A stretch of 64,000 bases of DNA from an uncultured Alphaproteobacteria bacterium. GTDB lineage: Bacteria; Pseudomonadota; Alphaproteobacteria; Acetobacterales; Acetobacteraceae. The number at the start of each line of letters is the position of its first letter. Positions within the stretch are counted from its first letter, which is position 1. Location: the NCBI GenBank assembly GCA_963754235.1, contig CAVWFK010000036.1, positions 1 through 64,000 on the forward strand. The letters run 5' to 3'. The position numbers and the translations under genes are program-made. Shown one piece after another: positions 3,345 to 57,132 of this stretch. The notes below the pieces were generated by a model. It ran no database searches, was not told the DNA's origin, and saw only the letters and a list, made by a program, of their open reading frames with translations.

Positions 3345-4129
3345 GCCACGTCCTCCGCCAGCGGCAGATCGAACAGCAGGCCGTGGATGCGCCGCGCGAG
3401 CCGGCCGATTGTGGGATCGTCGGCGCCGCGATGGCGAAACCCGTCCGAGTTCAGCTCGGCGCGCACGCGCCCCGGATGCGGCGACAGCACCAGGATGCGC
3501 GAGCCGATCAGCACCGCCTCCTCGATCGAGTGGGTGACGAACATCACGGTGAAGCGGAGCTGGTCCCACAGACCCATCAGCTCTTCCTGCATGGTGCGGC
3601 GGGTGAGCGCGTCGAGCGCCGCGAAGGGTTCGTCCATCAGCAGGATGTCGGGTGCCATCGCCATCGCCCGCGCGATCGCGACCCGCATCTTCATCCCCCC
3701 CGAGAGCATGTGCGGATAGGCGTCCGCGAACTTGGCAAGCTGCACCTTCTCCAGGATTGCCATCGCGCGGTCGCTGGCGTCGCGGCCGCGGAAGCGCCCG
3801 CTCGCGCGCATCGGGAACAGCACGTTGCCGAGTACCGTCTTCCACGGCATCAGTTGCTCGAACTCCTGGAACACCATCATCCGGTCCGGGCCGGGGCGCA
3901 CGACCGGCCGGCCGCGCAGCGCGATGCTGCCCTCGGCGGGCGCCATGAAGCCGCCGATCGCCTTCAGCAGTGTCGATTTGCCGCACCCGGAGGGGCCGAG
4001 GATCACGAACCGATCACCCGCCTCGACGGTCAGATCGACGCGCCAGGTCGCGGTGACCAGATCGTTCGGGGTCTTGTATTGCAGCGTCAGGCCGCGAACT
4101 TCGAGCAGCGGACTAGCCTCGGGCTGCAT
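3341..4129 (-). CDS. ABC transporter ATP-binding protein (NitT/TauT family)
   Basis: Walker A 'GPSGCGKST', signature 'LSGGMKMRVAIARA', Walker B 'ILLMDEPFAALD'. Start chosen at the internal 'MQPEASPLLEVRGL'. Confidence 0.85.
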   Translation of the reverse strand: MQPEASPLLEVRGLTLQYKTPNDLVTATWRVDLTVEAGDRFVILGPSGCGKSTLLKAIGGFMAPAEGSIALRGRPVVRPGPDRMMVFQEFEQLMPWKTVLGNVLFPMRASGRFRGRDASDRAMAILEKVQLAKFADAYPHMLSGGMKMRVAIARAMAMAPDILLMDEPFAALDALTRRTMQEELMGLWDQLRFTVMFVTHSIEEAVLIGSRILVLSPHPGRVRAELNSDGFRHRGADDPTIGRLARRIHGLLFDLPLAEDVA

Positions 4130-4137
4130 CGCGCCGC

Positions 4138-5151
4138 TCAGTCGCCCTTCAGCTCGCTCGCGGTTGAAGAAAAAAACACGTCTCGCCATGATCCGGGCGC
4201 ATGCGGGATCAGGCCCTGCTTTGCCATGAACGCGGCGAAGACGCCGATCTTGTGCGGATCGAGCGTCCAATGGTTCTCGGAATCCTTGAGGATTTTCACT
4301 ACATCGGCCTCAGAGAGCGCGGATGCTTTCTGCGTCTTCAGGTAGATCTGCGCCGCCTCGTCGGGGTGCTCGCGAATGAACGCTTCCGCCTGCCGCAACG
4401 CGGCCATGAAGGCCGCCACGACCTTCGGGTTCTTCTCCACGAAGCGGTTCGTCGCCCAGATGCAGTTGAAGGTGTGCGGCCCGCCCAGCACGTCGTCGCT
4501 GCTGAGCACGCGATGCACGTTCGGATGCTGCAGCTCCTCGTACATGTACGGGGCCGAGGTGAAGTGCGCGGTGATCCCCGCCTTGCCGCTCAGCATCGCC
4601 GCCATTCCGTCCGGATGCGACATCGACACGGTGAGCCTGTCGAGCTTGTGCGCGTTCGCCTCTCCGAACGCCTTGGCCGCCGCCATTTGCAGGATGATCG
4701 CCTGGATCGACACGCGCGCCGCCGGCAGCGCGATGCGGTCCTTGTCGGTGAAGCCGGCGATCGTATGCACGTTCGGGTCGATGGTATTCAGGTAGAGCGG
4801 CATCGAATTGAGCGCGGAGAGGCCCTTGACGTCGAGATTGCCGTGCGTGCGCGCCCAGATCACCAGCATCGGCGCGACCCCGCCCGACGCGAAATCCAGA
4901 TTGCCGGAGATCAGCGCCTCGTTCATCGCGGCACCGCCGGTGAAGCGCAGCCAATGCGTGGTGATGGCGACACCGCGTTGCTTGCCTTGCGTTTCCAGCA
5001 GGTTCTGCGCGCGCATCACAGTCAGCGGCAGGTAGGAAAGCCCGTATTCCTGCGCGAGCCTTACATTGACCGCCCGCGCCGAGGGCACGCCCGCCGCCAG
5101 CGTCGCGAGTGCGATGCCGAGTGCGGACAAGACCTGGCCGAGACGTCCCAT
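4138..5151 (-). CDS. ABC transporter periplasmic substrate-binding protein (NMT1/SsuA/TauA-like)
   Basis: Signal peptide 'MGRLGQVLSALGIALATLAAGVPSARA', 337 aa, SsuA/NitT-type fold features. Confidence 0.8.
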   Translation of the reverse strand: MGRLGQVLSALGIALATLAAGVPSARAVNVRLAQEYGLSYLPLTVMRAQNLLETQGKQRGVAITTHWLRFTGGAAMNEALISGNLDFASGGVAPMLVIWARTHGNLDVKGLSALNSMPLYLNTIDPNVHTIAGFTDKDRIALPAARVSIQAIILQMAAAKAFGEANAHKLDRLTVSMSHPDGMAAMLSGKAGITAHFTSAPYMYEELQHPNVHRVLSSDDVLGGPHTFNCIWATNRFVEKNPKVVAAFMAALRQAEAFIREHPDEAAQIYLKTQKASALSEADVVKILKDSENHWTLDPHKIGVFAAFMAKQGLIPHAPGSWRDVFFSSTASELKGD

Positions 5152-5213
5152 GTGCCTCCCTCCGGCGCGTTCTTGATGAGCGGCCCGAAATTAGAGCGGC
5201 GCTGCGCGAGGGG

Positions 5214-5924
5214 TCAAACCGCCACCGCCATCGCCATCGCGATCGCCGCCGCGGCTGCGCCCGGATCGGCCGCACCCGTGATCGGCCTTCCGACCACCAC
5301 CAGGTCGGCCCCGCTCGCGACCGCCTGCGCAGGTGTCGCGACCCGCGCCTGATCGCCCGCCTCGCTGCCTATCGGTCGCACGCCCGGCACCACCAGCAGC
5401 GGCGCCGGGCCGAGTGCCGCGCGGAGTGCCGCCACCTCGTGCGCGCTGCACACCAGCCCGTCGGCGCCGGCCGCGATCGCGAGCCGGCCGAGCCGCAGCA
5501 CCTGCGCCGCCGGCTCGCCTTCTACTCCCGTCGCCGCGAGCGCCGCCGCATCGAGGCTGGTCAGCACCGTCACCGCCAGCAGAAGCGGCGGATCGGCGGC
5601 CGCCGCACCCGCCTCGTGGGCCGCGGCGATCATCGCGGCGCCACCCGCCGCGTGCACCGTCAGCATCGCCGGGCGCAGCGCCAGCACCGCACGCACTGCC
5701 CCCGCAACCGTATTCGGGATGTCGTGCAGCTTGAGGTCCAGGAACAGCGGCACGCCGCTTCGCCCGGCCACCTCCCGCACGCCCGCCGGCCCGTTCGCCG
5801 CGAAAAACTCAAGGCCGAGCTTCACGCCGGCGCAATGCGGCGCGACCGCTTCGGCCCAGGCGCGCGCCTGTCGTGGATCGGCGGTGTCGAGCGCCGCGAT
5901 CAGCCGCGAGCGGCGCTCAGGCAT
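5214..5924 (-). CDS. pyrF: orotidine 5'-phosphate decarboxylase
   Basis: '..[27 protein letters not shown]..', 236 aa. Confidence 0.9.
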
Positions 5925-5962
5925 CCGACCTCAGGCATCCGACCTCAGGCATCCGGCGGCGG
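5920..5962. repeat. 14-bp tandem repeat x3 ('GGTCGGATGCCTGA') spanning the lapA stop and the pyrF start codon
   Basis: 'ctcaggcatccgacctcaggcatccgacctcaggcatccgg' read directly from the sequence. Confidence 0.6.
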
Positions 5963-6256
5963 CAGCGGCGCGGGACGGGGCGAGAGCCGCGCCTGAAAGT
6001 CCTGCAATTCGGCCTCCAGAAGCCGCACCCGCCGCTCGGCCAGGTGCGCGCGCCGGCGCTGCACGAGGGCACTGCCCCAGACCACCAGCGCGCCCAGCAG
6101 CAGGCCGATCGCCAACCCCGCCAGCACCGCGAACGAGAGCGGCGCCTGCATCGCGAAATCGGTCGGCCAGAAGCCGAGCTGCACCGGCTGCGGGTTCGAC
6201 AGCGCGAACACGACCAGGATCAGCAGCACCGGAAACAGCACGATCATGCGCAACAC
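5945..6256 (-). CDS. LapA/DUF1049-family inner-membrane protein
   Basis: Two-TM small protein 'MLRMIVLFPVLLILVVFALS..'. Sits in the conserved position between ihfB and pyrF. Confidence 0.65.
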   Translation of the reverse strand: MLRMIVLFPVLLILVVFALSNPQPVQLGFWPTDFAMQAPLSFAVLAGLAIGLLLGALVVWGSALVQRRRAHLAERRVRLLEAELQDFQARLSPRPAPLPPPDA

Positions 6257-6271
6257 GATGGATAGCCCCGA

Positions 6272-6598
6272 TCAGGCGCTCGCGCGCTCCAGCCGTGCCG
6301 CGCCGCGCGGCTTGCCGCGATTGACCCGCTCGCGCAGTTCCTTGCCGGCCTTGAAGAACGGCACCATCTTCTCGTCAACCGGCACCGCCTCGCCGGTGCG
6401 CGGATTGCGCCCGGTGCGGGCGCCGCGACGCTTGACGGTGAAGGCGCCGAAGCCGCGCAACTCGACACGGTCGCCGCGCGAGAGGGCGGCGCCGATCTCG
6501 CTGAACACGGTGGCGACGATGGTCTCGACATCGGCCCCGCGCAGATGCGGGTTGGCGGCGGCGAGTTCCGCGATCAACTCGGACCTGGTCATCGTCAT
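6272..6598 (-). CDS. ihfB: integration host factor subunit beta
   Basis: '[44 protein letters not shown]..'. Confidence 0.85.
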
Positions 6599-7536
6599 TC
6601 TGCCCCCGGCCCCGAAGGCTGCCAAAGCGCCAGCGGCAAGTCAAGCATAAGTGATTGCAGCGCAACACTTTTGTCAAGGGCGCTGCCGAGCAGGGCGGGC
6701 AGGAGACTGGCCCGGACCGAGGCGAGCCAGCCTCGCTTCGGCGCCACCTTGCGCATCGGCAGCGCGGCCGGGACCGCCTTCGTGCGCGCGAGCCACGCCC
6801 GCGCCGACGGCTCGCCCCCGATCGCATCGACCAGCCCCAGCGCCAGTGCCTGCCGGCCGGTATAGGCGCGCCCGTCCGCGAGCCGCCGCACCCGGGCCGG
6901 ATCCATGTGCCGGCCGGTCGCGACCATGACCACGAACTGGTCGTAGAGATCGTCCACGATGCCTTGCAGCACCTTCTGCCCCGCCGGGCTGGTCGGGTGC
7001 AGGGGGCTCGGCTGGTCCTTGAGCGGCCCGGAGACCAGCGTGTCGGTGGTGATGCCGAGCTTGCCCAGCAGGCCCGAGACCTCGCCGGTTGCCATCAGCA
7101 CGCCGATCGAGCCGGTGAGCGTGCCTTCGCGGGCGAAGATGCGCGCCGCCGGCACCGCGACCATGTAGCCGGCCGAGGCGGCGAGCCCGCCCATCACCGC
7201 GACCACCGGCTTGACCTTCGCCACGCTCGCGATCGCGTCGTGCAACGCCTGCCCGCCGGCGACACTGCCGCCAGGACTGTCGATCGCCACGATCAGCGCC
7301 ACCGCATGGCGGTCGGTCGCGAGGGCGCCCACGCGGGCGTCGAGTGCGTCGTCCTCGGTGATGAGACCGTTGACCGCGAGCCGCGCGACGTAGCGCCCCT
7401 CCCCGGCGGCGCCGCCCAGCCGCACGAACGCGACCAGCAGCGCCGCGGCCACCGCCAGCACGGCGACGATCTGCCATGCGGCGAGACGGCGCTTGAGGCG
7501 CTGCCGCTCGCTCAGCAGATCGGCCGTGAACGGCAT
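6595..7536 (-). CDS. sppA: signal peptide peptidase SppA (36K type)
   Basis: 313 aa, N-terminal TM segment, '[11 protein letters not shown]' serine-protease motif. Confidence 0.85.
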
Positions 7537-7585
7537 TGTCGCGGCCCCCGCCCTCCTTTTTTTGTCGCGGCCCTCGCCGTCGGGC

Positions 7586-9349
<1,764 letters not shown>

Positions 9350-21505: not shown

Positions 21506-21913
21506 TCAGCTCGCCGCACGAAACGGATTGACGATGCGCAGCCGGCCATCGAGCGCCATCCCGTGCTGCATGTCTTCCGACCACAACGTGTCACAATCGG
21601 CATGGAGAGCGGAGGCCGCGATCATGGCGTCATAGACTGAGAGATTGTAGCGCTCGGCCAGCGCCAAGCCAGTTTCGTGCATCTCGACCGTAAGGGGGTG
21701 AACGGTCAGCAAGCCGCGCAAGATGGACAGCAACGAATGGGTATCCTGCCATGACATTCGCATCTTACGGCGGGCGACCTTGGCAAGCTCGTTCAACACC
21801 TGAACGCTGATCGCGCCGCCGCGGCCGATGATCGCCTCTGCCTGGTCCGCCTTCACCGCATCCCCGGACGCAATATAGATGAGGACATTGGTGTCGAAGA
21901 AGCTAGCGGGCAT
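21506..21913 (-). CDS. vapC: type II toxin VapC (PIN-domain ribonuclease)
   Basis: 'MPASFFDTNVLIYIASGD..' PIN motifs. Confidence 0.85.
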   Translation of the reverse strand: MPASFFDTNVLIYIASGDAVKADQAEAIIGRGGAISVQVLNELAKVARRKMRMSWQDTHSLLSILRGLLTVHPLTVEMHETGLALAERYNLSVYDAMIAASALHADCDTLWSEDMQHGMALDGRLRIVNPFRAAS

Positions 21914-22133
21914 TCGCCTCGTCCCGGTCGAACTTGAAATCGGGAGGAAGGCGGCCGCGGAACGCGCGTAGCCGTCTCAGCAATTCCGCACGGCCAGGTT
22001 TGCGCGCAACGGCCAGTTCCCGCGCGTCGGCGACGTGGATTTCGATCTCATCACCTTCCTTGAGTTCGAGCGCCTCGACCACGGCCGCAGGGAGGCGGAC
22101 GGCGAGGCTGTTACCCCATTTGGCGACCAGCAT
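21903..22133 (-). CDS. vapB: type II antitoxin VapB (AbrB/MazE/SpoVT fold)
   Basis: 'MLVAKWGNSLAVRLPAAVVEALELKEGDEIEI..'. 11-nt overlap with vapC. Confidence 0.8.
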   Translation of the reverse strand: MLVAKWGNSLAVRLPAAVVEALELKEGDEIEIHVADARELAVARKPGRAELLRRLRAFRGRLPPDFKFDRDEANAR

Positions 22134-22191
22134 CTTGATCTCCCGGTATGGATATACATGCGAAGAAATGTGTATCCAAGGGCGCGGCAAA

Positions 22192-23380
22192 TCAACGGAA
22201 AGGTGCTGCATTGCAGGCGGACCCGGCGAGCGTCCTTCCCCACCCCTCGGCGCCCAGCCACGCCACCCGCCCGGCCGCGATCGTGGCGACGAGGCGCGGC
22301 GTGGCCCCCCGCATCGGCGACCAGCAGCAGATCGGCGCGCTTGCCGGCCGCGATCGTGCCGCGATCGGCGAGCCCGCAGGCTGCCGCCGGATTGGCCGAA
22401 ACGAGCCGCCACGCCGCCGCCAGATCGCGCACGCCACGCGACGCCAGCACGAACGCCGCGCGCAGCATCGCCGGATAGAAATAGTCGCTGGAGAGCACGG
22501 TGCAGAGTCCGGCCTCGGCGAGCCGCGCCGCCGACGCCCAGCCGAGATGCGAGCGCCCGCGCACCACGTTGGGGCTGCCCATCACCACCCAGTCGCCCGC
22601 TTCGCGCGCGGCCTCGGCGACCGCCTCCGCCATCGGGAACTCGCAGATGCGCGCGCCGCGGGCGCGGAAGGCGGCGCGCGTCGCGATGCTTTCGTCGTCG
22701 TGGCTCGCCATCGGCAGCCCGGCCGCTCGCGCCGCCGCCGCGATCGCGTCGAGCCCGGCCGGAACGGCACCGGCACCCCTCTCCACCCTGGCCGCGAGCG
22801 CGCGGAACGCCTCAAGCGTCATGCCGGCGCGCTCGCCGTATTTCGCGCCCAACACCGGGTCGGCGATCCGGCGCAGGATCGTCGGCGTGTGGTCGTTGAA
22901 CGCCAGCAGATGCACGCGGCCGCCGGCAATGTCGGCGCGCGCCATGTCGAGTGCCGCGACGTTGAACGCCTCCCAGCGCAGATGGATGCGCATGTCGCAC
23001 ACGGCGCGTGCGCGGTGCGCCTCCATCGCGTCGAGCAGCGCGCGCCACGTCTCGGCACCACGCAGCCCGGGCTCCCAGGAGAGCGTGACACCGTGATAGG
23101 CGGTGGTGATGCCGTTCGCCAGCAGCTGCGCTTCGGTATCGGCCAGCGCGACGGACGGCGGAAAATCCACGCCCGGCCGCGGCTGCAATTGCCGCTCGAA
23201 CGCATCGCCGTGGATATCGACGATGCCGGGCAGCACCAGCAGGCCGCGCGCATCGATCGCGCAACCGGCCTCGGCACACCCGATGGCCGCGATCCGACCC
23301 TCGGCCAGCAGCAGATCGGCCGTTTCCCAATTCCCCTCGCCGAGCAGCAGGCGGCCGCCGATGACACCGAGCGGCGTCAC
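22192..23380 (-). CDS. phnM: PhnM-like amidohydrolase (second phnM copy), apparent -1 frameshift near a C6 run at about 22305-22310
   Basis: '..PGIVDIHGDAFERQ..GKRADLLLVADAGG' in one frame. The expected C-terminus '..PRLVATIAAGRVAWLGAEGW..*' is in another frame (ORF 22192..22437). GTG start overlaps the phnF stop. Confidence 0.7.
22226..22300. repeat. about 75-bp direct repeat, copy 2 (native phnM-like 3' end)
   Basis: See copy 1. The two copies bracket vapBC. Confidence 0.6.
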
Positions 23381-30125: not shown

Positions 30126-30399
30126 TAAAACCCGTGGGCAACTCCGTTGCAATATGCATCGTCATGTATGGACGGCCCCCGTCTGGCAAGGAGGTTTTGG
30201 CGGCGCTGGCGATTGGTCTGGAGCGGTCATGTATTCGGCCTGTTGCTGCGGTCGAATGCTGACCGCTGGCCCCGATGGGTTACGCGGGCCGGGTTCCAAG
30301 CATCGCGGCGCGCTGTGGGGCGCGATGACGAGACGGAGTGTCCCGGTCCAGGTCCTGACCATTTTGCCGTCGCTGCCTTCTGCTCCTTGCTGGGTCACT

Positions 30400-31760
30400 G
30401 GCTGCTCTTCAGGCGAGCGGCCAGAAAGGGGAAGGTTTCTTGGTTTGGCTGCTGCGGGGCGTTCCTTCGTCCCGGCCTTCGTCCCGGCCTGTGTGGTTGC
30501 GGGCGCCGCGCGCAGCGGCGGTCAAGGGGGGCCGGAGGCCCCCGCCGCAGGCGGCGCGCAGCGCCCTTGACGGCCGCGAGCACGGCACCACGCTGGAGTG
30601 GGCCGCAGCTGCGGCCATCATTGCGCCACCTGTGCCGCGGGGCGGCGATAGGTCTCACCGGAGATCAGCATCGCCCAGGCGATGCGGGCGGTTTTCGCCG
30701 CCTGCGCCAAGACCACGACCTTCACCGGCCGGCGAGCCAGGATGCCGCGCTGCCAGGCGGTGGCGCGATCGGTGCGGCTGCGGGCATAGCGCATGATCGT
30801 GCTGGCGCCGAGGGCCAACAGCTTGCGCAGCCGGATGTCGCCCTGGCGGCTGATGCCGCTCGCGCGCCGCTTGCCCGCACTCGAATGCTCAAGCGGTGTC
30901 AGGCCGCACCAGGCGGCGAAGTCGCGGGCGCTGCGGAACTGCCGACCGTCGCCGATTGCGGTGACGATGGCGTGGGCGGTGATCGGGCCAACGCCGGGGA
31001 TGGTGGCCAGCCGGCGCATCACCGGGTGCTCGCGGGCGGCCGCGACGATGCGTTCCTCCAGCGCCGCAATGTCGCGCTGCAACCTCTCGATGGTCTTCAC
31101 CATGATGCGCAGCGGCACCCGAAGCGGCTCCGGGATCGCAACCTCCGCCGTGTCGTCGACCCGCCGCGCCAGCTCGGCAAAGCCCCGCCGGCCCTGGGCG
31201 GCGATGATGCCGAACTCGGCCAGCAGGCTGCGCGCGCAGTTCGTCAGCTGGGTCTGCTGCTTCAGCAGCAGATCGCGCGCGCGTTCCAGGCCACGCGCGG
31301 CCTGCTGCTCGATGCTCTTGATCGGCACGAAGCGCATGTTCGGCCGGCACACCGCCGCGCAGATGGCTTCGGCATCACGCGCGTCGTTCTTGTTGCGCCT
31401 GACGAAGGGCTTCACATAGGCGGCCGGGATCAGCCGCACCTCATGGCCGAGCGCCCGCAGCTGGCGCGCCCAGTAATGCGCGCTGCCGCAGGCCTCGATC
31501 CCCACCAGGGCGGGCGACTGCTTGGTGAAGAACGGCTCGACCTGGGTCCGGCGCAGCTTCTTCTGCTCGATCACCTTGCCGGTGCTGTCGGCCACATGCA
31601 CCTGGAACACAGACTTGGCGATATCCAGGCCGATTATGGTAGCGTTCATGACGGACGGTCTCCGTTGCTGGTTGGTCAAACCCCAGCTTGGCACATAGAT
31701 GCCGTCAGGGGGCCGTCCACCCAGCATCGCGAGGCGCGCTGCGCCGTGGCGATCCAGGCG
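30400..31760 (-). mobile_element. IS110-family insertion sequence (boundaries approximate)
   Basis: Contains the IS110 transposase gene. Inserted in the phnM / DUF1045-gene spacer. No obvious terminal inverted repeats, as is typical of IS110. Confidence 0.6.
30618..31649 (-). CDS. IS110 family transposase
   Basis: 'MNATIIGLDIAKSVFQVHV..' DEDD N-domain, C-terminal '..CGLTPLEHSSAGKRR..'. Confidence 0.85.
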   Translation of the reverse strand: MNATIIGLDIAKSVFQVHVADSTGKVIEQKKLRRTQVEPFFTKQSPALVGIEACGSAHYWARQLRALGHEVRLIPAAYVKPFVRRNKNDARDAEAICAAVCRPNMRFVPIKSIEQQAARGLERARDLLLKQQTQLTNCARSLLAEFGIIAAQGRRGFAELARRVDDTAEVAIPEPLRVPLRIMVKTIERLQRDIAALEERIVAAAREHPVMRRLATIPGVGPITAHAIVTAIGDGRQFRSARDFAAWCGLTPLEHSSAGKRRASGISRQGDIRLRKLLALGASTIMRYARSRTDRATAWQRGILARRPVKVVVLAQAAKTARIAWAMLISGETYRRPAAQVAQ

Positions 31761-31813
31761 GGCCGCTCCGTGCCTCCCGCCTGGATCGCCACGCCGCCCA
31801 GCGGCGGCTCGCG

Positions 31814-32512
31814 ATGACGGCTGCGCCAGGTCCCGTTCTGTCTAGGGTCGCGCTCTACTGGGCGCCGGCGGCCGACGATCCGCTGTGGCGTGCGGGCAAT
31901 ACATGGCTCGGCCGCGACCCCGAGACCGCCGATCGCCTGCTTCCTCCCGACCTGCCCGGCATCGCGGGCCTGACCGAAGCGCCGCGGCGCTATGGCTTCC
32001 ACGCGACGCTGAAGCCGCCGATGCGCCTCGCCGGATCGTGGCAGGCGTTCCGCCGCGACGCGGCGATGCTCGCCGCGCGCACCGCCGCCTTCCCGATGCC
32101 GCCGCTCGCGGTCGCCGACCTCGCCGGCTTCCTGGCGTTGCGCGAGGCGGCACCCTGCCCGGCGCTGCACGCCTTCGCCGATGCCTGCGTCGCAGCACTC
32201 GACGCGCACCGCGCGCCGCTTGACCCTGCCGAGCAGGCAGACCGGCGCGCGGCCGGCCTGTCGGCGGCGGAGGAGGCAAATCTGCTGCGCTGGGGCTATC
32301 CTTACGTATTCGATACGTTCCGCTTCCACGCGACACTCACCCGCCGGCTGAGTGCGGAAGAGCAGGCGTGGGTCGCCCCCGCCGCCCGCGCGCATTTCGC
32401 CGCCGCGCTCGCTGCCGATCGCCGGGTCACCGAACTCTGCCTGTTCACCGAGGCGGCCCCCGGTGCGCCGTTCATGCTGGCAGAGCGGCTGCCGCTAGCC
32501 GGTTCAGGATAG
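31814..32512 (+). CDS. DUF1045 (2H-phosphoesterase-like) putative phosphonate metabolism protein
   Basis: '..YWAPAADDPLWRAGNTWLGRD..FHATLKPP..FHATLTRR' two H-x-T-x motifs. Confidence 0.75.
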   Translation: MTAAPGPVLSRVALYWAPAADDPLWRAGNTWLGRDPETADRLLPPDLPGIAGLTEAPRRYGFHATLKPPMRLAGSWQAFRRDAAMLAARTAAFPMPPLAVADLAGFLALREAAPCPALHAFADACVAALDAHRAPLDPAEQADRRAAGLSAAEEANLLRWGYPYVFDTFRFHATLTRRLSAEEQAWVAPAARAHFAAALAADRRVTELCLFTEAAPGAPFMLAERLPLAGSG

Positions 32513-33020
32513 CGACCAGCCTGCGCCCGCCCTGCTCGATCGTGCCGTCGTTCATGATCGTGTCGCGCGGCAGGCCCTCGGGCAGCTTGACGGTGCGCGC
32601 CAGACGCGCGGCGACCGCAACCGCCTCGTCGCGCCCGCGCGCGGCCATGCGGCGTGCCAGCACGTCCGGCGGCGCGGTGACCTCCACCACGTGCAGCGGA
32701 TAGCGCGAGCCGGCCTCGGCCAGCACGGTGCGCGACACGCTGGCGACGACGATCTTCCCCTCCGCCAGCCGCAGCCCGATCTCGGCGGGCACGCCGTACA
32801 TCAGCCCGTGCGCACGCCAGGAGAGGGCGAAGGCGCCGGCATTCTGCCGCGTCACGAACGTCTTCTCGTCGATCGTCTCGTGGTCCTCGCCCTCCAGCGG
32901 CGGGCGGGTCACGGCGCGGCGGACGAAATAGAACCGCTCCTGCGCGCCAAGCGCCGTCCGGGCGGCATTGATCAGCGTGTCCTTGCCCGAGCCGGAAGGC
33001 CCGACCACCGCCACCAGCAT
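32472..33020 (-). CDS. phnN: ribose 1,5-bisphosphokinase PhnN
   Basis: 'MLVAVVGPSGSGKDTLI..'. Confidence 0.85.
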   Translation of the reverse strand: MLVAVVGPSGSGKDTLINAARTALGAQERFYFVRRAVTRPPLEGEDHETIDEKTFVTRQNAGAFALSWRAHGLMYGVPAEIGLRLAEGKIVVASVSRTVLAEAGSRYPLHVVEVTAPPDVLARRMAARGRDEAVAVAARLARTVKLPEGLPRDTIMNDGTIEQGGRRLVAILNRLAAAALPA

Positions 33021-33089
33021 CCCGCCTCCTCTTATTGACGCGGCGAAGCTTGCGCGTAGCCTGTTGCTCGCGCAACGGGAGCACACGCG

Positions 33090-34868
33090 ATGTTCACTAC
33101 CCGTCCGGAAATTGCCGGCACCTTCGGCGTCGTCGCCAGCACGCACTGGATCGCGAGCCAGACCGGCATGGCGGTGCTGGAACGCGGCGGCAACGCATTC
33201 GACGCCGCGGTGGCGACGGCGTTCGTGCTGCAGGTCGCCGAGCCGCACCTGAACGGGCCGGGCGGCGACGCGCCGATCATCATCCACGACGCCCGCGCGG
33301 GCGAGCAGCGGGTGATCTGCGGCCAGGGCGTCGCCCCGGAGGCGGCGACGATCAGGCACTTCGAGGAACTCGGCCTCGACCTCGTGCCCGGCACCGGACT
33401 GCTGCCGGCCGTGGTGCCCGGCGCGTTCGACGCCTGGTGCCTGCTGCTGCGCGACTGGGGCAGTTGGGAACTGGCCGACGTGCTGGCGTACGCGATCGGC
33501 TACGCGCGGCGGGGCATTCACATCGTCGCGCGCATCTCCGCCACCATCGAGGGCGTGCGCCCGCTGTTCGAGGCGGAATGGAAGTCGAGCCGCGACGTGT
33601 TTCTTCCCGGCGGCGCGGTGCCCGCACCGGGGAGCCTGTTCGCGCGCCCGGCGCTGGCCGACACCTGGGAACGCCTCTGCCGCGAGGCCGTGGGCGGCTC
33701 GCGCGAGGCCCGGATCGATGCGGCGCGCGACGCCTGGAATCGCGGCTTCGTCGCCGAGGCGATCGGGCGCTTCTACCAGGGCACCGAAGTGCTCGACACC
33801 TCGGGCCGCCGCCATCGCGGGCTGCTCGCGGCCGACGACCTCGCGCGCTGGCACGCGACGGTGGAAGCGCCGCTGGCGTACCAATACGGCGCGCACACGG
33901 TGCTGAAATGCGGGCCGTGGAGCCAGGGGCCGGTGTTCTTGCAGCAACTGGCGCTGCTGCGCGGCTGCGATCTGGGCGGCATGGACCCGGTCGGCGCCGA
34001 GTTCGTCCACACCATCGTCGAATGCGCCAAGCTCGCCTATGCCGATCGCGAGGCCTATTACGGCGACCCCGATTTCGTGCGCGTGCCGATGGAGGCGCTG
34101 CTGTCGGCGGAATACAACGACACGCGGCGTGCGCTTGTTGGCGCGAAGGCATCGCTGGCGCTGCGCCCCGGCAAGCTTCCCGGCTTCGATCCCTGGGTCG
34201 ATCACGAAGCGGCGTCGCGCGCCGACTACGCGACGCGCGCGGCCGGAGCGGGCGAGCCGACCATTGCGCGCCTGGGCTTGATGGGCGCTGATACCTGCCA
34301 CCTCGACGTGATCGACCGGCACGGCAACATGGTGAGTGCGACACCCTCGGGCGGGTGGCTGCATTCCTCGCCGGTGGTGCCGGAGCTTGGTTTCTGCATC
34401 ACCACGCGCGGGCAGATGTTCTGGCTGCGCGACGGCGTGCCGAGCAGCCTCGCGCCGCGCAAGCGGCCGCGCACCACGCTCACGCCCAGCATGGCGCTGC
34501 GCGACGGCGTGCCGTGGATGGCGTTCGGCACGCCGGGCGGCGACCAGCAGGATCAGTGGTCGCTCGTTTTCTTTGCCCGCATGGTGCATCACAATATGAC
34601 GATCCAGCAGGCGATCGACGCGCCGAGCTTCCATTCCGAGCACTGGCCGAGCAGTTTTTGGCCGCGCGCCGCCTATCCCGGCAAGCTGGTGCTGGAAGCG
34701 CGCTTTCCGCGCACCGTGGTCGAGGAGTTGCGCGCGCGCGGCCATCGCGCCGAGCTGGGTGAGGAGTGGTCCGAAGGGCGCCTGTCGGCCGCGCGCACCG
34801 AGCCGGACGGCCAGATGTTCGCCGGCGCCAACGCCCGCGGGATGCAGGGCTACGCGGTGGGGCGGTGA
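33090..34868 (+). CDS. gamma-glutamyltransferase family protein
   Basis: 592 aa '..TTHWIASQTGMAVLERGGNAFDAAVA..' Ntn-hydrolase GGT. Confidence 0.85.
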   Translation: MFTTRPEIAGTFGVVASTHWIASQTGMAVLERGGNAFDAAVATAFVLQVAEPHLNGPGGDAPIIIHDARAGEQRVICGQGVAPEAATIRHFEELGLDLVPGTGLLPAVVPGAFDAWCLLLRDWGSWELADVLAYAIGYARRGIHIVARISATIEGVRPLFEAEWKSSRDVFLPGGAVPAPGSLFARPALADTWERLCREAVGGSREARIDAARDAWNRGFVAEAIGRFYQGTEVLDTSGRRHRGLLAADDLARWHATVEAPLAYQYGAHTVLKCGPWSQGPVFLQQLALLRGCDLGGMDPVGAEFVHTIVECAKLAYADREAYYGDPDFVRVPMEALLSAEYNDTRRALVGAKASLALRPGKLPGFDPWVDHEAASRADYATRAAGAGEPTIARLGLMGADTCHLDVIDRHGNMVSATPSGGWLHSSPVVPELGFCITTRGQMFWLRDGVPSSLAPRKRPRTTLTPSMALRDGVPWMAFGTPGGDQQDQWSLVFFARMVHHNMTIQQAIDAPSFHSEHWPSSFWPRAAYPGKLVLEARFPRTVVEELRARGHRAELGEEWSEGRLSAARTEPDGQMFAGANARGMQGYAVGR

Positions 34869-34904
34869 TGGGCCTCGTGCCTCGGATGGCAGCAATGCGG
34901 CGTT

Positions 34905-35214
34905 TTGGCATGGGAAAAGATCGTGAAGCCCTCAGCCGCCCTTGACCTCAAGCGAGTCGCCGTACGCGAAGCTGCGAGCCGGTTTCGTGTCGCGAATCCG
35001 CGCGTATTCGGCTCGGGTACTGCACGGAACCGACACGGACGGTGGCGATCTCGATCTGTTGGTGGATGCGTTGCCGGGAGCGACCCTGTTCGATCTTGGT
35101 GGCCTGCAAGTCGAGCTCGAAGAATTGCTGGGCGTTTCCGTCGATCTGGTGACGCCGGGGGATTTGCCGGTCAAATTCCGCGATCAAGTTCTTGCGGAGG
35201 CGAGGCCGGTGTGA
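34905..35214 (+). pseudogene. MNT (minimal nucleotidyltransferase, MntA-like) antitoxin, frameshifted
   Basis: '..RVFGSGTAR' (ORF 34905..) and 'GTDTDGGDLDLLVD..LGVSVDLV..' (ORF 34942..) lie in adjacent frames. Together they would give the NTase signature hGS..D.D. Confidence 0.5.
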
Positions 35215-35217
35215 AGC

Positions 35218-35592
35218 ATGAACCGCCTGCCCGACTACCTCGCCCACATCCAGCAAGCGGCGTCGGACGCGTGCAGCTTTGTCGAGGGACTGCATAAGGA
35301 AGAGTTCTTCGCCGACAAGCGCACGCAAAAGGCTGTCGTCATGAGCCTGGTCATTGTGGGCGAGGCCGCGACGAAGGTAATGGCTCGTTATCCCGAATTC
35401 GTAGCGAGGCACTCCGAAGTACCATGGCGTAGCATGCGCGGGATGCGCAACCGCGTTGCGCACGGCTACTTCGACATCGACCTCGAGGTGGTTTGGGACA
35501 CGGTGCAGACCGCTGCGCCCGAGCTGCTCGATCGTCTGGCTGCCATTCGTCATGACGCCGAGTCCCATATTGAAAGTAGGGGCTACGAGTGA
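35218..35592 (+). CDS. hepT: HepT-like (DUF86/HEPN) ribonuclease toxin
   Basis: '..MRGMRNRVAHGYFDIDLEVVW..' Rx4HxY motif. Confidence 0.8.
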   Translation: MNRLPDYLAHIQQAASDACSFVEGLHKEEFFADKRTQKAVVMSLVIVGEAATKVMARYPEFVARHSEVPWRSMRGMRNRVAHGYFDIDLEVVWDTVQTAAPELLDRLAAIRHDAESHIESRGYE

Positions 35593-35644
35593 GCACGCGC
35601 CCCACCCTGCCGTTGTGGCTGCACCCGAACCGGCTGGTCGCGCG

Positions 35645-37420
35645 CTACCGCTTCGGCTTCTCCGCCGCGATCCGCCCTGGCAGCGGATGCCCGGGCGGCG
35701 GCATCCGCCTCGGCTTGGGCGCAGGCCGCGCCGGCGCCTTGCCGGCACGCAACTGCGCGATCGTGATCCGCGACGTGATCTGCTCGGGATCCGTCGCCAG
35801 CTCGATCACCGCCGGCCGGCCGCTCGCGACCGCGCGGGCGAAGGCAGGCGCAAACTCCGCCGTCTCGGTCACGCTCTCGCCGTGGCCCCCGAACGCCTCG
35901 ATGAGCCGGCCAAAATCGGGGTTGGTGAGCGAGGTGCCGGAGACGCGGCCGGGATAGTCGCGCTCCTGGTGCATCCGGATCGTGCCGTACATCTGGTTGT
36001 TGAACACCAGCACGATCGGCGCCACGCCGTGATGAAAGGCGGTTGCGATCTCCTGCCCGGTCATCAGGAAGCCGCCGTCGCCGACGAAGCAGACCACCTG
36101 CCGGTGCGGATACGCGATCTTCGCTCCTACCGCCGCCGGCACGCCGTAGCCCATCGCCCCGTTGCACGGCCCGATGTAGCGCTGATGCTCGGAGAAGTGC
36201 ATGAACCGCGTCGCCCAGGTGGCGAAATTGCCCGCATCCGTCGTAAAGATCGCATCCGGTGCCGCCATCTCCTCGAGCGTGCGCAAGCATCGCGCCACGT
36301 TCAGCTTGCCCTCGTACTCCGGCACCGCATGTTCGGCCTCGCGCAGCGCCCGCAGATCGGCGGTCCACTCCGCCCACACTGGCGGCGCGTCGGGTGCCCA
36401 GTCGCGCACCGCCGCCGCAAACGCATCGAGATCGGTCGGGATGCCGAGCGCCACGCGGAACACGCGCCCGATCTCGGCACCATCCGGATAGACATGAATG
36501 ATCGGGGTTTCGCCCGCGAGATCGAACAGCGTGTAGCCCTGCGTCACCGCCTCCGGCAGCCGCGAGCCGATCGCGAGCACCAGATCGGCCTCGCGCACGC
36601 GCTCGACCAGCGCGGGGTCGCAACCGACACCGAGATCGCCCACGAAATTCTCGGCGGTGCCGTCATAGAGCGCCTGGCGCCGGAAGCCGACCGCGACCGG
36701 CAACTGCCAGGCGCGCAGGAACGCGGCGATACCGGCGCGCGCCGCCGCACTCCACACCGATCCGCCGAGCATCGCGAGCGGCCGTTGCGCGCGGCCCAGC
36801 ATCGCGCGCATCCGCGCCAGCGCCGCCGGATCGGGATGCGGGCGGGCGACGTCGCAGGGACGCAAATCCGGCACCTCGACCACGTCGCGCTGCATTTCCT
36901 CCGACAACGCAATCACCACCGGGCCGGGCCGTCCGGTGGTCGCGACGTCGGCCGCGTGGGCCACCATCTCGGGGATGCGGCGCGCGTCATCGATCTGTGT
37001 GACCCACTTCGCGAGCGGGCCGAACATCCGGCGGTAGTCGATCTCCTGGAAGCTGTCGCGGTCGGTCTCCTCGAACGGGATCTGGCCCACGAACAGCAGC
37101 AGCGGCGTTGAATCCTGGGCCGCGATGTGCACGCCGATCGCGCCGTGGCAGGCGCCGGGTCCGCGCGTGACCATCGCCGCGGCGGGCCGGCCCGAGAGCT
37201 TGCCGAACGCTTCTGCCATGTTCACGGCACCCGCCTCGAAACGGCACGTCACCAGCTTCAGCCGGTCGCGCACCGCGTAGAGGCCGTCGAGCACGTCGAG
37301 ATAGCTCTCGCCCGGCACCGCGAACACGTGGTCGATCCCTTGCGCCACCAGCGCATCGGCCAAAGCGCGTCCGCCGGTGCGCGGCTGCGTGCGCAGCTTG
37401 CGGGCCTGCGCGAGTTCCAT
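35645..37420 (-). CDS. thiamine-pyrophosphate enzyme (acetolactate synthase large-subunit-like)
   Basis: 591 aa, 'GDGGF' TPP motif. Confidence 0.8.
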   Translation of the reverse strand: MELAQARKLRTQPRTGGRALADALVAQGIDHVFAVPGESYLDVLDGLYAVRDRLKLVTCRFEAGAVNMAEAFGKLSGRPAAAMVTRGPGACHGAIGVHIAAQDSTPLLLFVGQIPFEETDRDSFQEIDYRRMFGPLAKWVTQIDDARRIPEMVAHAADVATTGRPGPVVIALSEEMQRDVVEVPDLRPCDVARPHPDPAALARMRAMLGRAQRPLAMLGGSVWSAAARAGIAAFLRAWQLPVAVGFRRQALYDGTAENFVGDLGVGCDPALVERVREADLVLAIGSRLPEAVTQGYTLFDLAGETPIIHVYPDGAEIGRVFRVALGIPTDLDAFAAAVRDWAPDAPPVWAEWTADLRALREAEHAVPEYEGKLNVARCLRTLEEMAAPDAIFTTDAGNFATWATRFMHFSEHQRYIGPCNGAMGYGVPAAVGAKIAYPHRQVVCFVGDGGFLMTGQEIATAFHHGVAPIVLVFNNQMYGTIRMHQERDYPGRVSGTSLTNPDFGRLIEAFGGHGESVTETAEFAPAFARAVASGRPAVIELATDPEQITSRITIAQLRAGKAPARPAPKPRRMPPPGHPLPGRIAAEKPKR

Positions 37421-37485
37421 GTCTGTCTCCCCGATCGCGCGCGCAGCTTACGCAGCGATGGGCGAGACCGAAAGGGCGGGTGGCC

Positions 37486-56883: not shown

Positions 56884-57132
56884 CCGCCGCCTCCCGGCAC
56901 CGCCGGCCATCCTGCCTCAGCCGTCATCGCGAGCCGGCCGCTTGGCCGGCGTGGCGATCCAGGCCCGCGGCACCGTGCGGCGCGCCTGGACTGCTTCGTC
57001 GCATTGCTCCTCGCAGTGACGGGGCGCGATGGGTCACGCGTTCAGAAAACCGCCACCGCCTGGTGACTGCGGCGATCGGTGCTACCCTACGGCACTGCCG
57101 CGCGGAAGCCGGGCGGCTGCGAAGGACCACCG

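Follow-up and report, generated by a model that had tools for sequence, protein, structure and literature searches.

A class I HepT/MntA (type VII) cassette with a frameshifted mntA gene beside an intact hepT gene in an Acetobacteraceae-like alphaproteobacterium

The founding type VII toxin-antitoxin system is the HepT/MntA pair of S. oneidensis (SO_3166/SO_3165) (PMC7641770). In this pair and in that of T. cleftensis, MntA transfers AMP to the Tyr of the RX4HXY motif of HepT (PMC7641770). Neutralisation of HepT rests mainly on this AMP modification, and GS to AT or DxD to ExE substitutions in MntA abolish AMPylation and reduce neutralisation (PMC7641770).

The window is the whole 64-kb stretch of DNA that was analysed, at its full length, and all coordinates count from its first letter. 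The following features make up the locus and its flanks.

33090..34868, plus strand: ggt, flank 5' of the cassette
34869..35644, plus strand: whole toxin-antitoxin cassette, 776 bp, between the ggt stop and the stop of the ThDP-enzyme gene
34923..35214, plus strand: mntA (MNT nucleotidyltransferase antitoxin), frameshifted as written, start GTG 34923, codons 1-31 in one frame and 32-96 in the next
34923..35297, plus strand: frame open from the mntA start, 31 native and 93 out-of-frame residues, stop TAA 35295-35297
35010-35015, plus strand: Gly30-Ser31 codons of GSX10DXD, directly followed by the extra G
35015..35017, plus strand: GGG run with one extra G (+1 insertion), a single-base gap in DNA alignments with three close relatives (L002, L082 and L083, see below)
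35047..35055, plus strand: D42-L-D44 codons, which supply DXD of GSX10DXD and are not in the frame of the GS codons
35218..35592, plus strand: hepT (HEPN RNase toxin), intact, 124 codons, PF01934 HepT-like (E 3.9e-26, 91.6 bits, cut-off 23.5)
35446..35469, plus strand: R77 N R V A H82 G Y84 (RX4HXY), with the RNase active site and the predicted AMPylation target of MntA, Tyr84
35515..35517, plus strand: hepT codon 100, GCG (Ala), Leu (TTG or TTA) in every relative
35645..37420, minus strand: ThDP-dependent enzyme gene, convergent flank, its stop adjoining the cassette

By domains, motifs, fold and gene order the locus is a class I HepT/MntA (type VII) module, which bears out the HepT/MNT pairing proposed in an initial annotation of this DNA. 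Strictly, the locus as written is a hepT gene with an mntA pseudogene. By analogy with the described pairs, HepT is predicted to be a growth-inhibiting RNase that would be neutralised by MntA through AMPylation of its Tyr.

As in S. oneidensis, mntA is located upstream of hepT with a tiny spacer, and both RX4HXY and (in the window after repair of the frame) GSX10DXD are present. An AlphaFold2 model of HepT (64 sequences) had a mean pLDDT of 87.3. Its best PDB matches were S. oneidensis HepT structures (5YEP, 6M6U and 7BXO; TM 0.61-0.68, probability 1.00), with the Aphanizomenon HEPN toxin next in rank. A PDB search with the single HepT sequence gave no match; a profile search did find PDB HepT. 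Unlike the S. oneidensis type pair, to which identity in structural alignment was 16-19%, the window proteins are shorter (124 and 96 aa) and mntA is frameshifted. Scores against the NCBIfam models stayed below the cut-off of 60 bits, at 38.8 bits for HepT (NF047751, HepT_toxin) and 28.9 bits for repaired MntA (NF047752, MntA_antitoxin). By sequence comparison the pair shares a superfamily with the S. oneidensis type pair but not a subfamily. P0279, a S. oneidensis HepT named 'ISSod9 toxin-antitoxin system toxin' by UniRef, falls into the same HepT subfamily as the window protein (71% identity over 94% of the query). The name of P0279 fits a mobile, horizontal spread of the cassette, ISSod9 being a transposon of the Tn3 family (PMC12230200). 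Unlike the ISSod9 pair, which is known here by its UniRef name, the window cassette is outside any recognisable transposon.

The HEPN/MNT proteins of Aphanizomenon flos-aquae (PDB 7AE2, 7AE6, 7AE8 and 7AE9) have the same fold class (TM 0.60-0.69), but the toxin is larger, about 140-150 aa, and 12-17% identical. This toxin is reportedly neutralised by oligoAMPylation, the AMPylated Tyr being next to RX4H.

The gene hepT was found intact, as initially reported from its 'RNRVAHGY' motif. All 124 codons are open, PF01934 is matched at the score given above, and R77, H82 and Y84 form RX4HXY. These residues were invariant in 80 relatives and aligned to R97..H102..Y104 of SO_3166.

For mntA, ORF 34905..35297 has the reading frame of the 'FGSGTAR' segment, and ORF 34942..35214 that of 'GTDTDGGDLDLLVD'. 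The two catalytic segments are in different frames, as the initial annotation had stated, and both ORFs were matched by a profile HMM of intact MNT homologues, the first over profile positions 1-32 (E 5e-14), the second over 21-96 (E 1e-38). Tested singly against PF01909, the N-terminal ORF gave no match and the C-terminal ORF 20.9 bits, just under the cut-off of 21. Once one G was removed, repaired MntA matched PF01909 with 35.4 bits (E 1.5e-8), and G30-S31-x10-D42-L-D44 was contained in one reading frame, whereas as written it is divided between two. Since MNT homologues begin with 'MKPSAALD', the true start of mntA is GTG 34923 and not TTG 34905. Repaired MntA has 96 aa; thousands of intact MNTs (96-102 aa) share 80-90% identity with it across 94-100% of its length, a match judged to be well beyond chance. 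The best database match to it (90% identity) was P0001 on an ENA contig of 1390 nt. P0001 has lost its stop codon and runs on to 123 aa by reading the hepT N-terminus in the wrong frame, owing to an indel-type lesion or an error.

At the lesion site, L002, L082 and L083 read TTCGGCTC-GG and the window reads TTCGGCTCGGG. As the extra G is immediately 3' of the Ser codon, GS and X10DXD are split between two frames. The frame from 34923 crosses the hepT ATG before it ends at 35295-35297. The downstream mntA frame is fully open, with no stop codon, and contains possible internal starts at TTG 34942 and GTG 34987. Because GS and DxD are essential for AMP transfer, mntA as written cannot yield a working antitoxin. 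To this extent the initial claim that a functional AMPylating antitoxin would be missing holds; its premise that the shift is real is less certain, since an indel in a G run may be an assembly error.

The mntA stop (35212-35214) and the hepT ATG (35218) are on the same strand with the antitoxin upstream, a layout common to 76 relatives. A remodelled mntA/hepT junction (35210-35220; GTGTGAAGCATG) is common to the window and L083, while L002 and L082 retain an ATGA stop/start overlap (GTATGAGCGAG). With the remodelled junction, hepT begins at a new ATG 3 nt past the mntA stop. The only Shine-Dalgarno-like sequence for hepT is GAGG at 35202-35205, 12 nt upstream. At the other end of the gene, HepT tails differ by an A3/A4 run (35572; region 35572-35592), giving 124 aa in the window and 120 aa in L083.

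The cassette is bare between two convergent housekeeping genes, with no recognisable transposon around it. Its GC content was 62.2% compared with 69.6% for the window, and GC3 was 0.67-0.79 compared with 0.88-0.89 in the flanks; with both values lower than in its surroundings, the cassette still looks foreign. A scan of 34600-35800 for sigma-70 promoters and intrinsic terminators found none, and an Rfam scan found no element. As no sigma-70-like promoter was seen in the ggt-mntA spacer of the window, read-through from ggt may transcribe the cassette. This spacer measures 54-62 nt in the window (34866-34925), L082 and L083; in L002 a single base separates the ggt stop codon from the mntA GTG start (about 3700-3712).

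HepT was scanned for in one genome per species, which gave 80 loci, and the region upstream was assessable in 77. A single-frame MNT was present beside HepT in 76 of these 77. The exception, L034 (Burkholderiaceae MAG, 3864-4348), has an intact hepT with RX4HXY and Leu100 beside a 5'-truncated MNT gene, of which about the last 39-43 codons remain upstream. Like the window, L034 combines an open hepT carrying RX4HXY with the lack of a usable cognate antitoxin gene. Unlike in the window, about two thirds of the MNT gene have been deleted, Leu100 is kept, and organism and locus are unrelated. L034 has reached this state independently. An intact hepT with a broken MNT gene therefore also occurs in nature through a lesion of a kind that no homopolymer error can produce. 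The initial annotation had called a toxin beside a broken antitoxin unexpected, which is too strong a word with one of the 77 assessable relatives in that state. Best cassette matches were spread over beta-, gamma- and alphaproteobacteria, and this wide taxonomic spread fits a mobile, horizontally spread cassette.

Close relatives of the window were reached via the flanking ThDP-enzyme gene, which yielded four loci. The closest to the window is L083 (ENA metagenome contig, 92.6% identity). L002 is a MAG contig with about 88-90% DNA identity to the window, and L082 is a JGI metagenome contig with the same cassette. All three have the arrangement ggt, cassette, ThDP-enzyme gene, and a single-frame mntA. 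The fourth locus, L081 (Acetobacteraceae MAG, ThDP enzyme 89% identical), is an empty site with 129 nt between ggt and the ThDP-enzyme gene. From the cassette in L002, L082 and L083 and the empty site in L081, the insertion is placed in an ancestor of the window, L002, L082 and L083.

L002 mirrors the window in that mntA is intact and hepT contains an extra C (GACCC; about 4290-4340) that alters its last residues. In addition, 77 nt of the window are missing from L002 at the hepT 3' end (compared over window 35540-35635). L082, a close relative of L002, has an intact HepT of 119 aa. The indel near the hepT C-terminus of L002 is in line with dispensability of the cassette in this lineage.

Pairwise dN/dS of the repaired mntA was 0.07 against L083 and 0.12-0.15 against L002 and L082, for comparison with 0.10-0.15 for hepT and 0.09-0.24 for the flanking genes. 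Such strong long-term purifying selection implies that the lesion is either recent or an assembly error. Substitutions were polarised with L002 and L082 as outgroups. On the mntA branches, nonsynonymous to synonymous changes were 4:4 for the window and 1:10 for L083, a difference that was not significant (Fisher one-sided p=0.07). The ratio hints at a relaxation of constraint specific to the window. For HepT the window branch (6:10) was no worse than that of the sister L083 (5:7), which, like its intact catalytic motif, speaks against decay. The substitutions S41G in MntA and Q38K in HepT were considered as decay markers and rejected, as the intact sister allele L083 shares both.

L100A in HepT was found in the window only and results from two adjacent base changes, TTG to GCG (35515-35516). 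Position 100 was Leu in 200 of 200 relatives (80/80 genome loci and 120/120 top cluster representatives). Leu is also present in L083, L002 and L082 and at the aligned position of S. oneidensis HepT (SO_3166; PDB 5YEP). Together with the conserved residues 89, 92, 93, 96, 103, 104 and 107, position 100 belongs to the hydrophobic face of the long C-terminal helix 89-121, as read from the periodicity of conservation along the helix. L100A may be regarded as a candidate attenuating change in HepT, and its uniqueness as a hint favouring real decay. It would give a specific basis to the inactive HepT that the initial annotation had named as one alternative.

The following explanation is proposed. 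A class I HepT/MntA (type VII) cassette would have been acquired horizontally by an Acetobacteraceae-like alphaproteobacterium and become fixed in its chromosome. In the normal state, the GSX10DXD site of MntA would add AMP to the Tyr of RX4HXY in HepT and so block the RNase. The extra G after the Gly-Ser codons would put the rest of mntA out of frame, leaving a 31-residue native stub followed by 93 nonsense residues. We consider it the best explanation that mntA was recently inactivated by a real mutation and that decay of the cassette has begun, with a probability of about 0.55 (odds of a real, recent lesion to an assembly error about 55:40). Tolerance of an open hepT would have one or several of three causes. 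The favoured one is prior attenuation of HepT, with L100A on the conserved hydrophobic face of the last helix as the candidate. As a second choice, translation of hepT may be lowered by ribosomes that cross its start codon out of frame, its only Shine-Dalgarno-like sequence being 12 nt away, and as a third, an MNT encoded outside the window may cover HepT.

The strongest competitor, to which we give a little less than an even chance, is that the extra G arose in assembly or base calling and that the real genome has an intact 96-codon mntA in a functional, unremarkable HepT/MntA pair. The one-base indel in the G run was read from the assembly alone, in which a real lesion and an error look alike. 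A one-base insertion in a G run is in keeping with an error, as are the perfectly conserved length of the repaired gene, its GSX10DXD and its dN/dS of 0.07-0.15. The downstream frame without a stop is exactly as expected of an assembly error in a functional gene, and the 76 single-frame MNT genes in 77 assessable relatives point the same way. Related assemblies are also rich in single-base indels (L083, hepT of L002, the read-through of P0001). Against an error, no other frame-breaking indel was detected in the 64-kb window or in its genes comparable with relatives, and a homopolymer of three bases is short for a systematic long-read error. The nonsynonymous excess in mntA and the unique L100A are easier to explain if the module is truly losing function.

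The quality of the surrounding sequence was assessed in two ways. A codon-position HMM over all 64 kb detected no other unexplained same-strand frame switch, only gene boundaries. A frame switch at about 22144 was rejected as a second frameshift, since it marks where an amidohydrolase gene meets a small vapB gene. The alignment with L083 over 4.8 kb contained 11 frame-breaking indels (phnN-like gene, ggt and ThDP-enzyme gene), every one of them on the L083 side, and the window genes were full length. L083 is evidently a noisy long-read assembly: over 3942-8759, compared with window 32689-37479, at least 11 small indels split these three genes. Both genes of its toxin-antitoxin cassette are open despite the indels in neighbouring genes. 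As the 64-kb contig spans an IS110 copy, the window may also derive from long reads. Metagenome contigs were scanned for the GGG and GG junction alleles and neither was found; as the GG allele was equally missing, absence of the GGG (frameshift) allele is uninformative.

If the frameshift is real and a translatable HepT is left without its cognate antitoxin, two courses may be envisaged. Either attenuation by L100A came first and freed mntA from selection before the frameshift, or an active HepT is AMPylated in trans by a non-cognate MNT. We regard this reading as rather unlikely. Less likely again is that the frameshift is real and a fully active HepT is held harmless in trans by a non-cognate MNT/MntA paralogue elsewhere in the genome. 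Class I HepT/MntA pairs are very abundant and often present in several copies per genome (PMC7641770), and the catalytic motif and acceptor Tyr of HepT are intact. Yet the additional MNT paralogues that the initial annotation had proposed to look for were absent from the 64-kb window by tblastn and profile HMM, as was any other HepT, and non-cognate pairs of this HepT/MNT subfamily are not known to cross-neutralise.

That the frameshift is bypassed or used, by programmed +1 frameshifting, transcriptional slippage at TCG-GGT or separate neutralising N- and C-terminal fragments, is hardly credible: the open downstream frame with its internal starts would allow for it, but the three syntenic alleles and the 76 of 77 other relatives are single-frame and hence exhibit no conserved recoding, a slippery or stop-codon context is absent and G3 is too short for slippage (judged from the sequence and general knowledge of recoding sites), the Rfam scan found no element, and fragments started downstream would lack the GS residues required for AMPylation (PMC7641770). 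Programmed frameshifting was rejected on the grounds that the shift occurs in no relative and that neither a slippery context nor an Rfam element was found.

Beyond annotation the locus has little significance: lesions of this kind are common, and the system is a very common one. If the indel is a recent genuine mutation, as preferred here, mntA should be annotated as a pseudogene beside an orphan hepT. The locus would then be one natural example of chromosomal toxin-antitoxin decay, bearing on whether a toxin must weaken before its antitoxin is lost, and L100A would lend itself to testing as a candidate attenuating mutation of the HepT fold. Should an active HepT be AMPylated in trans, type VII systems would be shown to cross-talk. 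Were the indel an error, the pair would simply join the roughly 16,000 known class I HepT/MntA pairs.

Other elements of the window were recorded as well. A second, apparently intact toxin-antitoxin pair of a MazE/AbrB-type vapB-like antitoxin and a PIN-domain toxin is located at 21506-22211 (minus strand).

about 21903..22133 or 22211, minus strand: vapB-like antitoxin, overlapping the 3' end of the amidohydrolase gene
21506..21913, minus strand: vapC-like PIN-domain toxin, partner of the vapB-like antitoxin

A 1.7-kb stretch at 30126-31843 is absent from syntenic L002 and L081 and contains an IS110-family transposase gene (30618..31727, minus strand; PF01548 and PF02371). The insertion interrupts a phosphonate (C-P lyase) cluster between its phnM-like and DUF1045 genes, and the toxin-antitoxin cassette follows about 3 kb downstream. 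No terminal inverted repeats were found around 30126-31843, which is expected for IS110-family elements. A hairpin with 22-nt arms (95% complementary) at 31741-31797 is part of a repeated sequence of about 100 nt, which recurs at window 56921-57020 and L083 2717-2817 and looks like a REP-like intergenic repeat.
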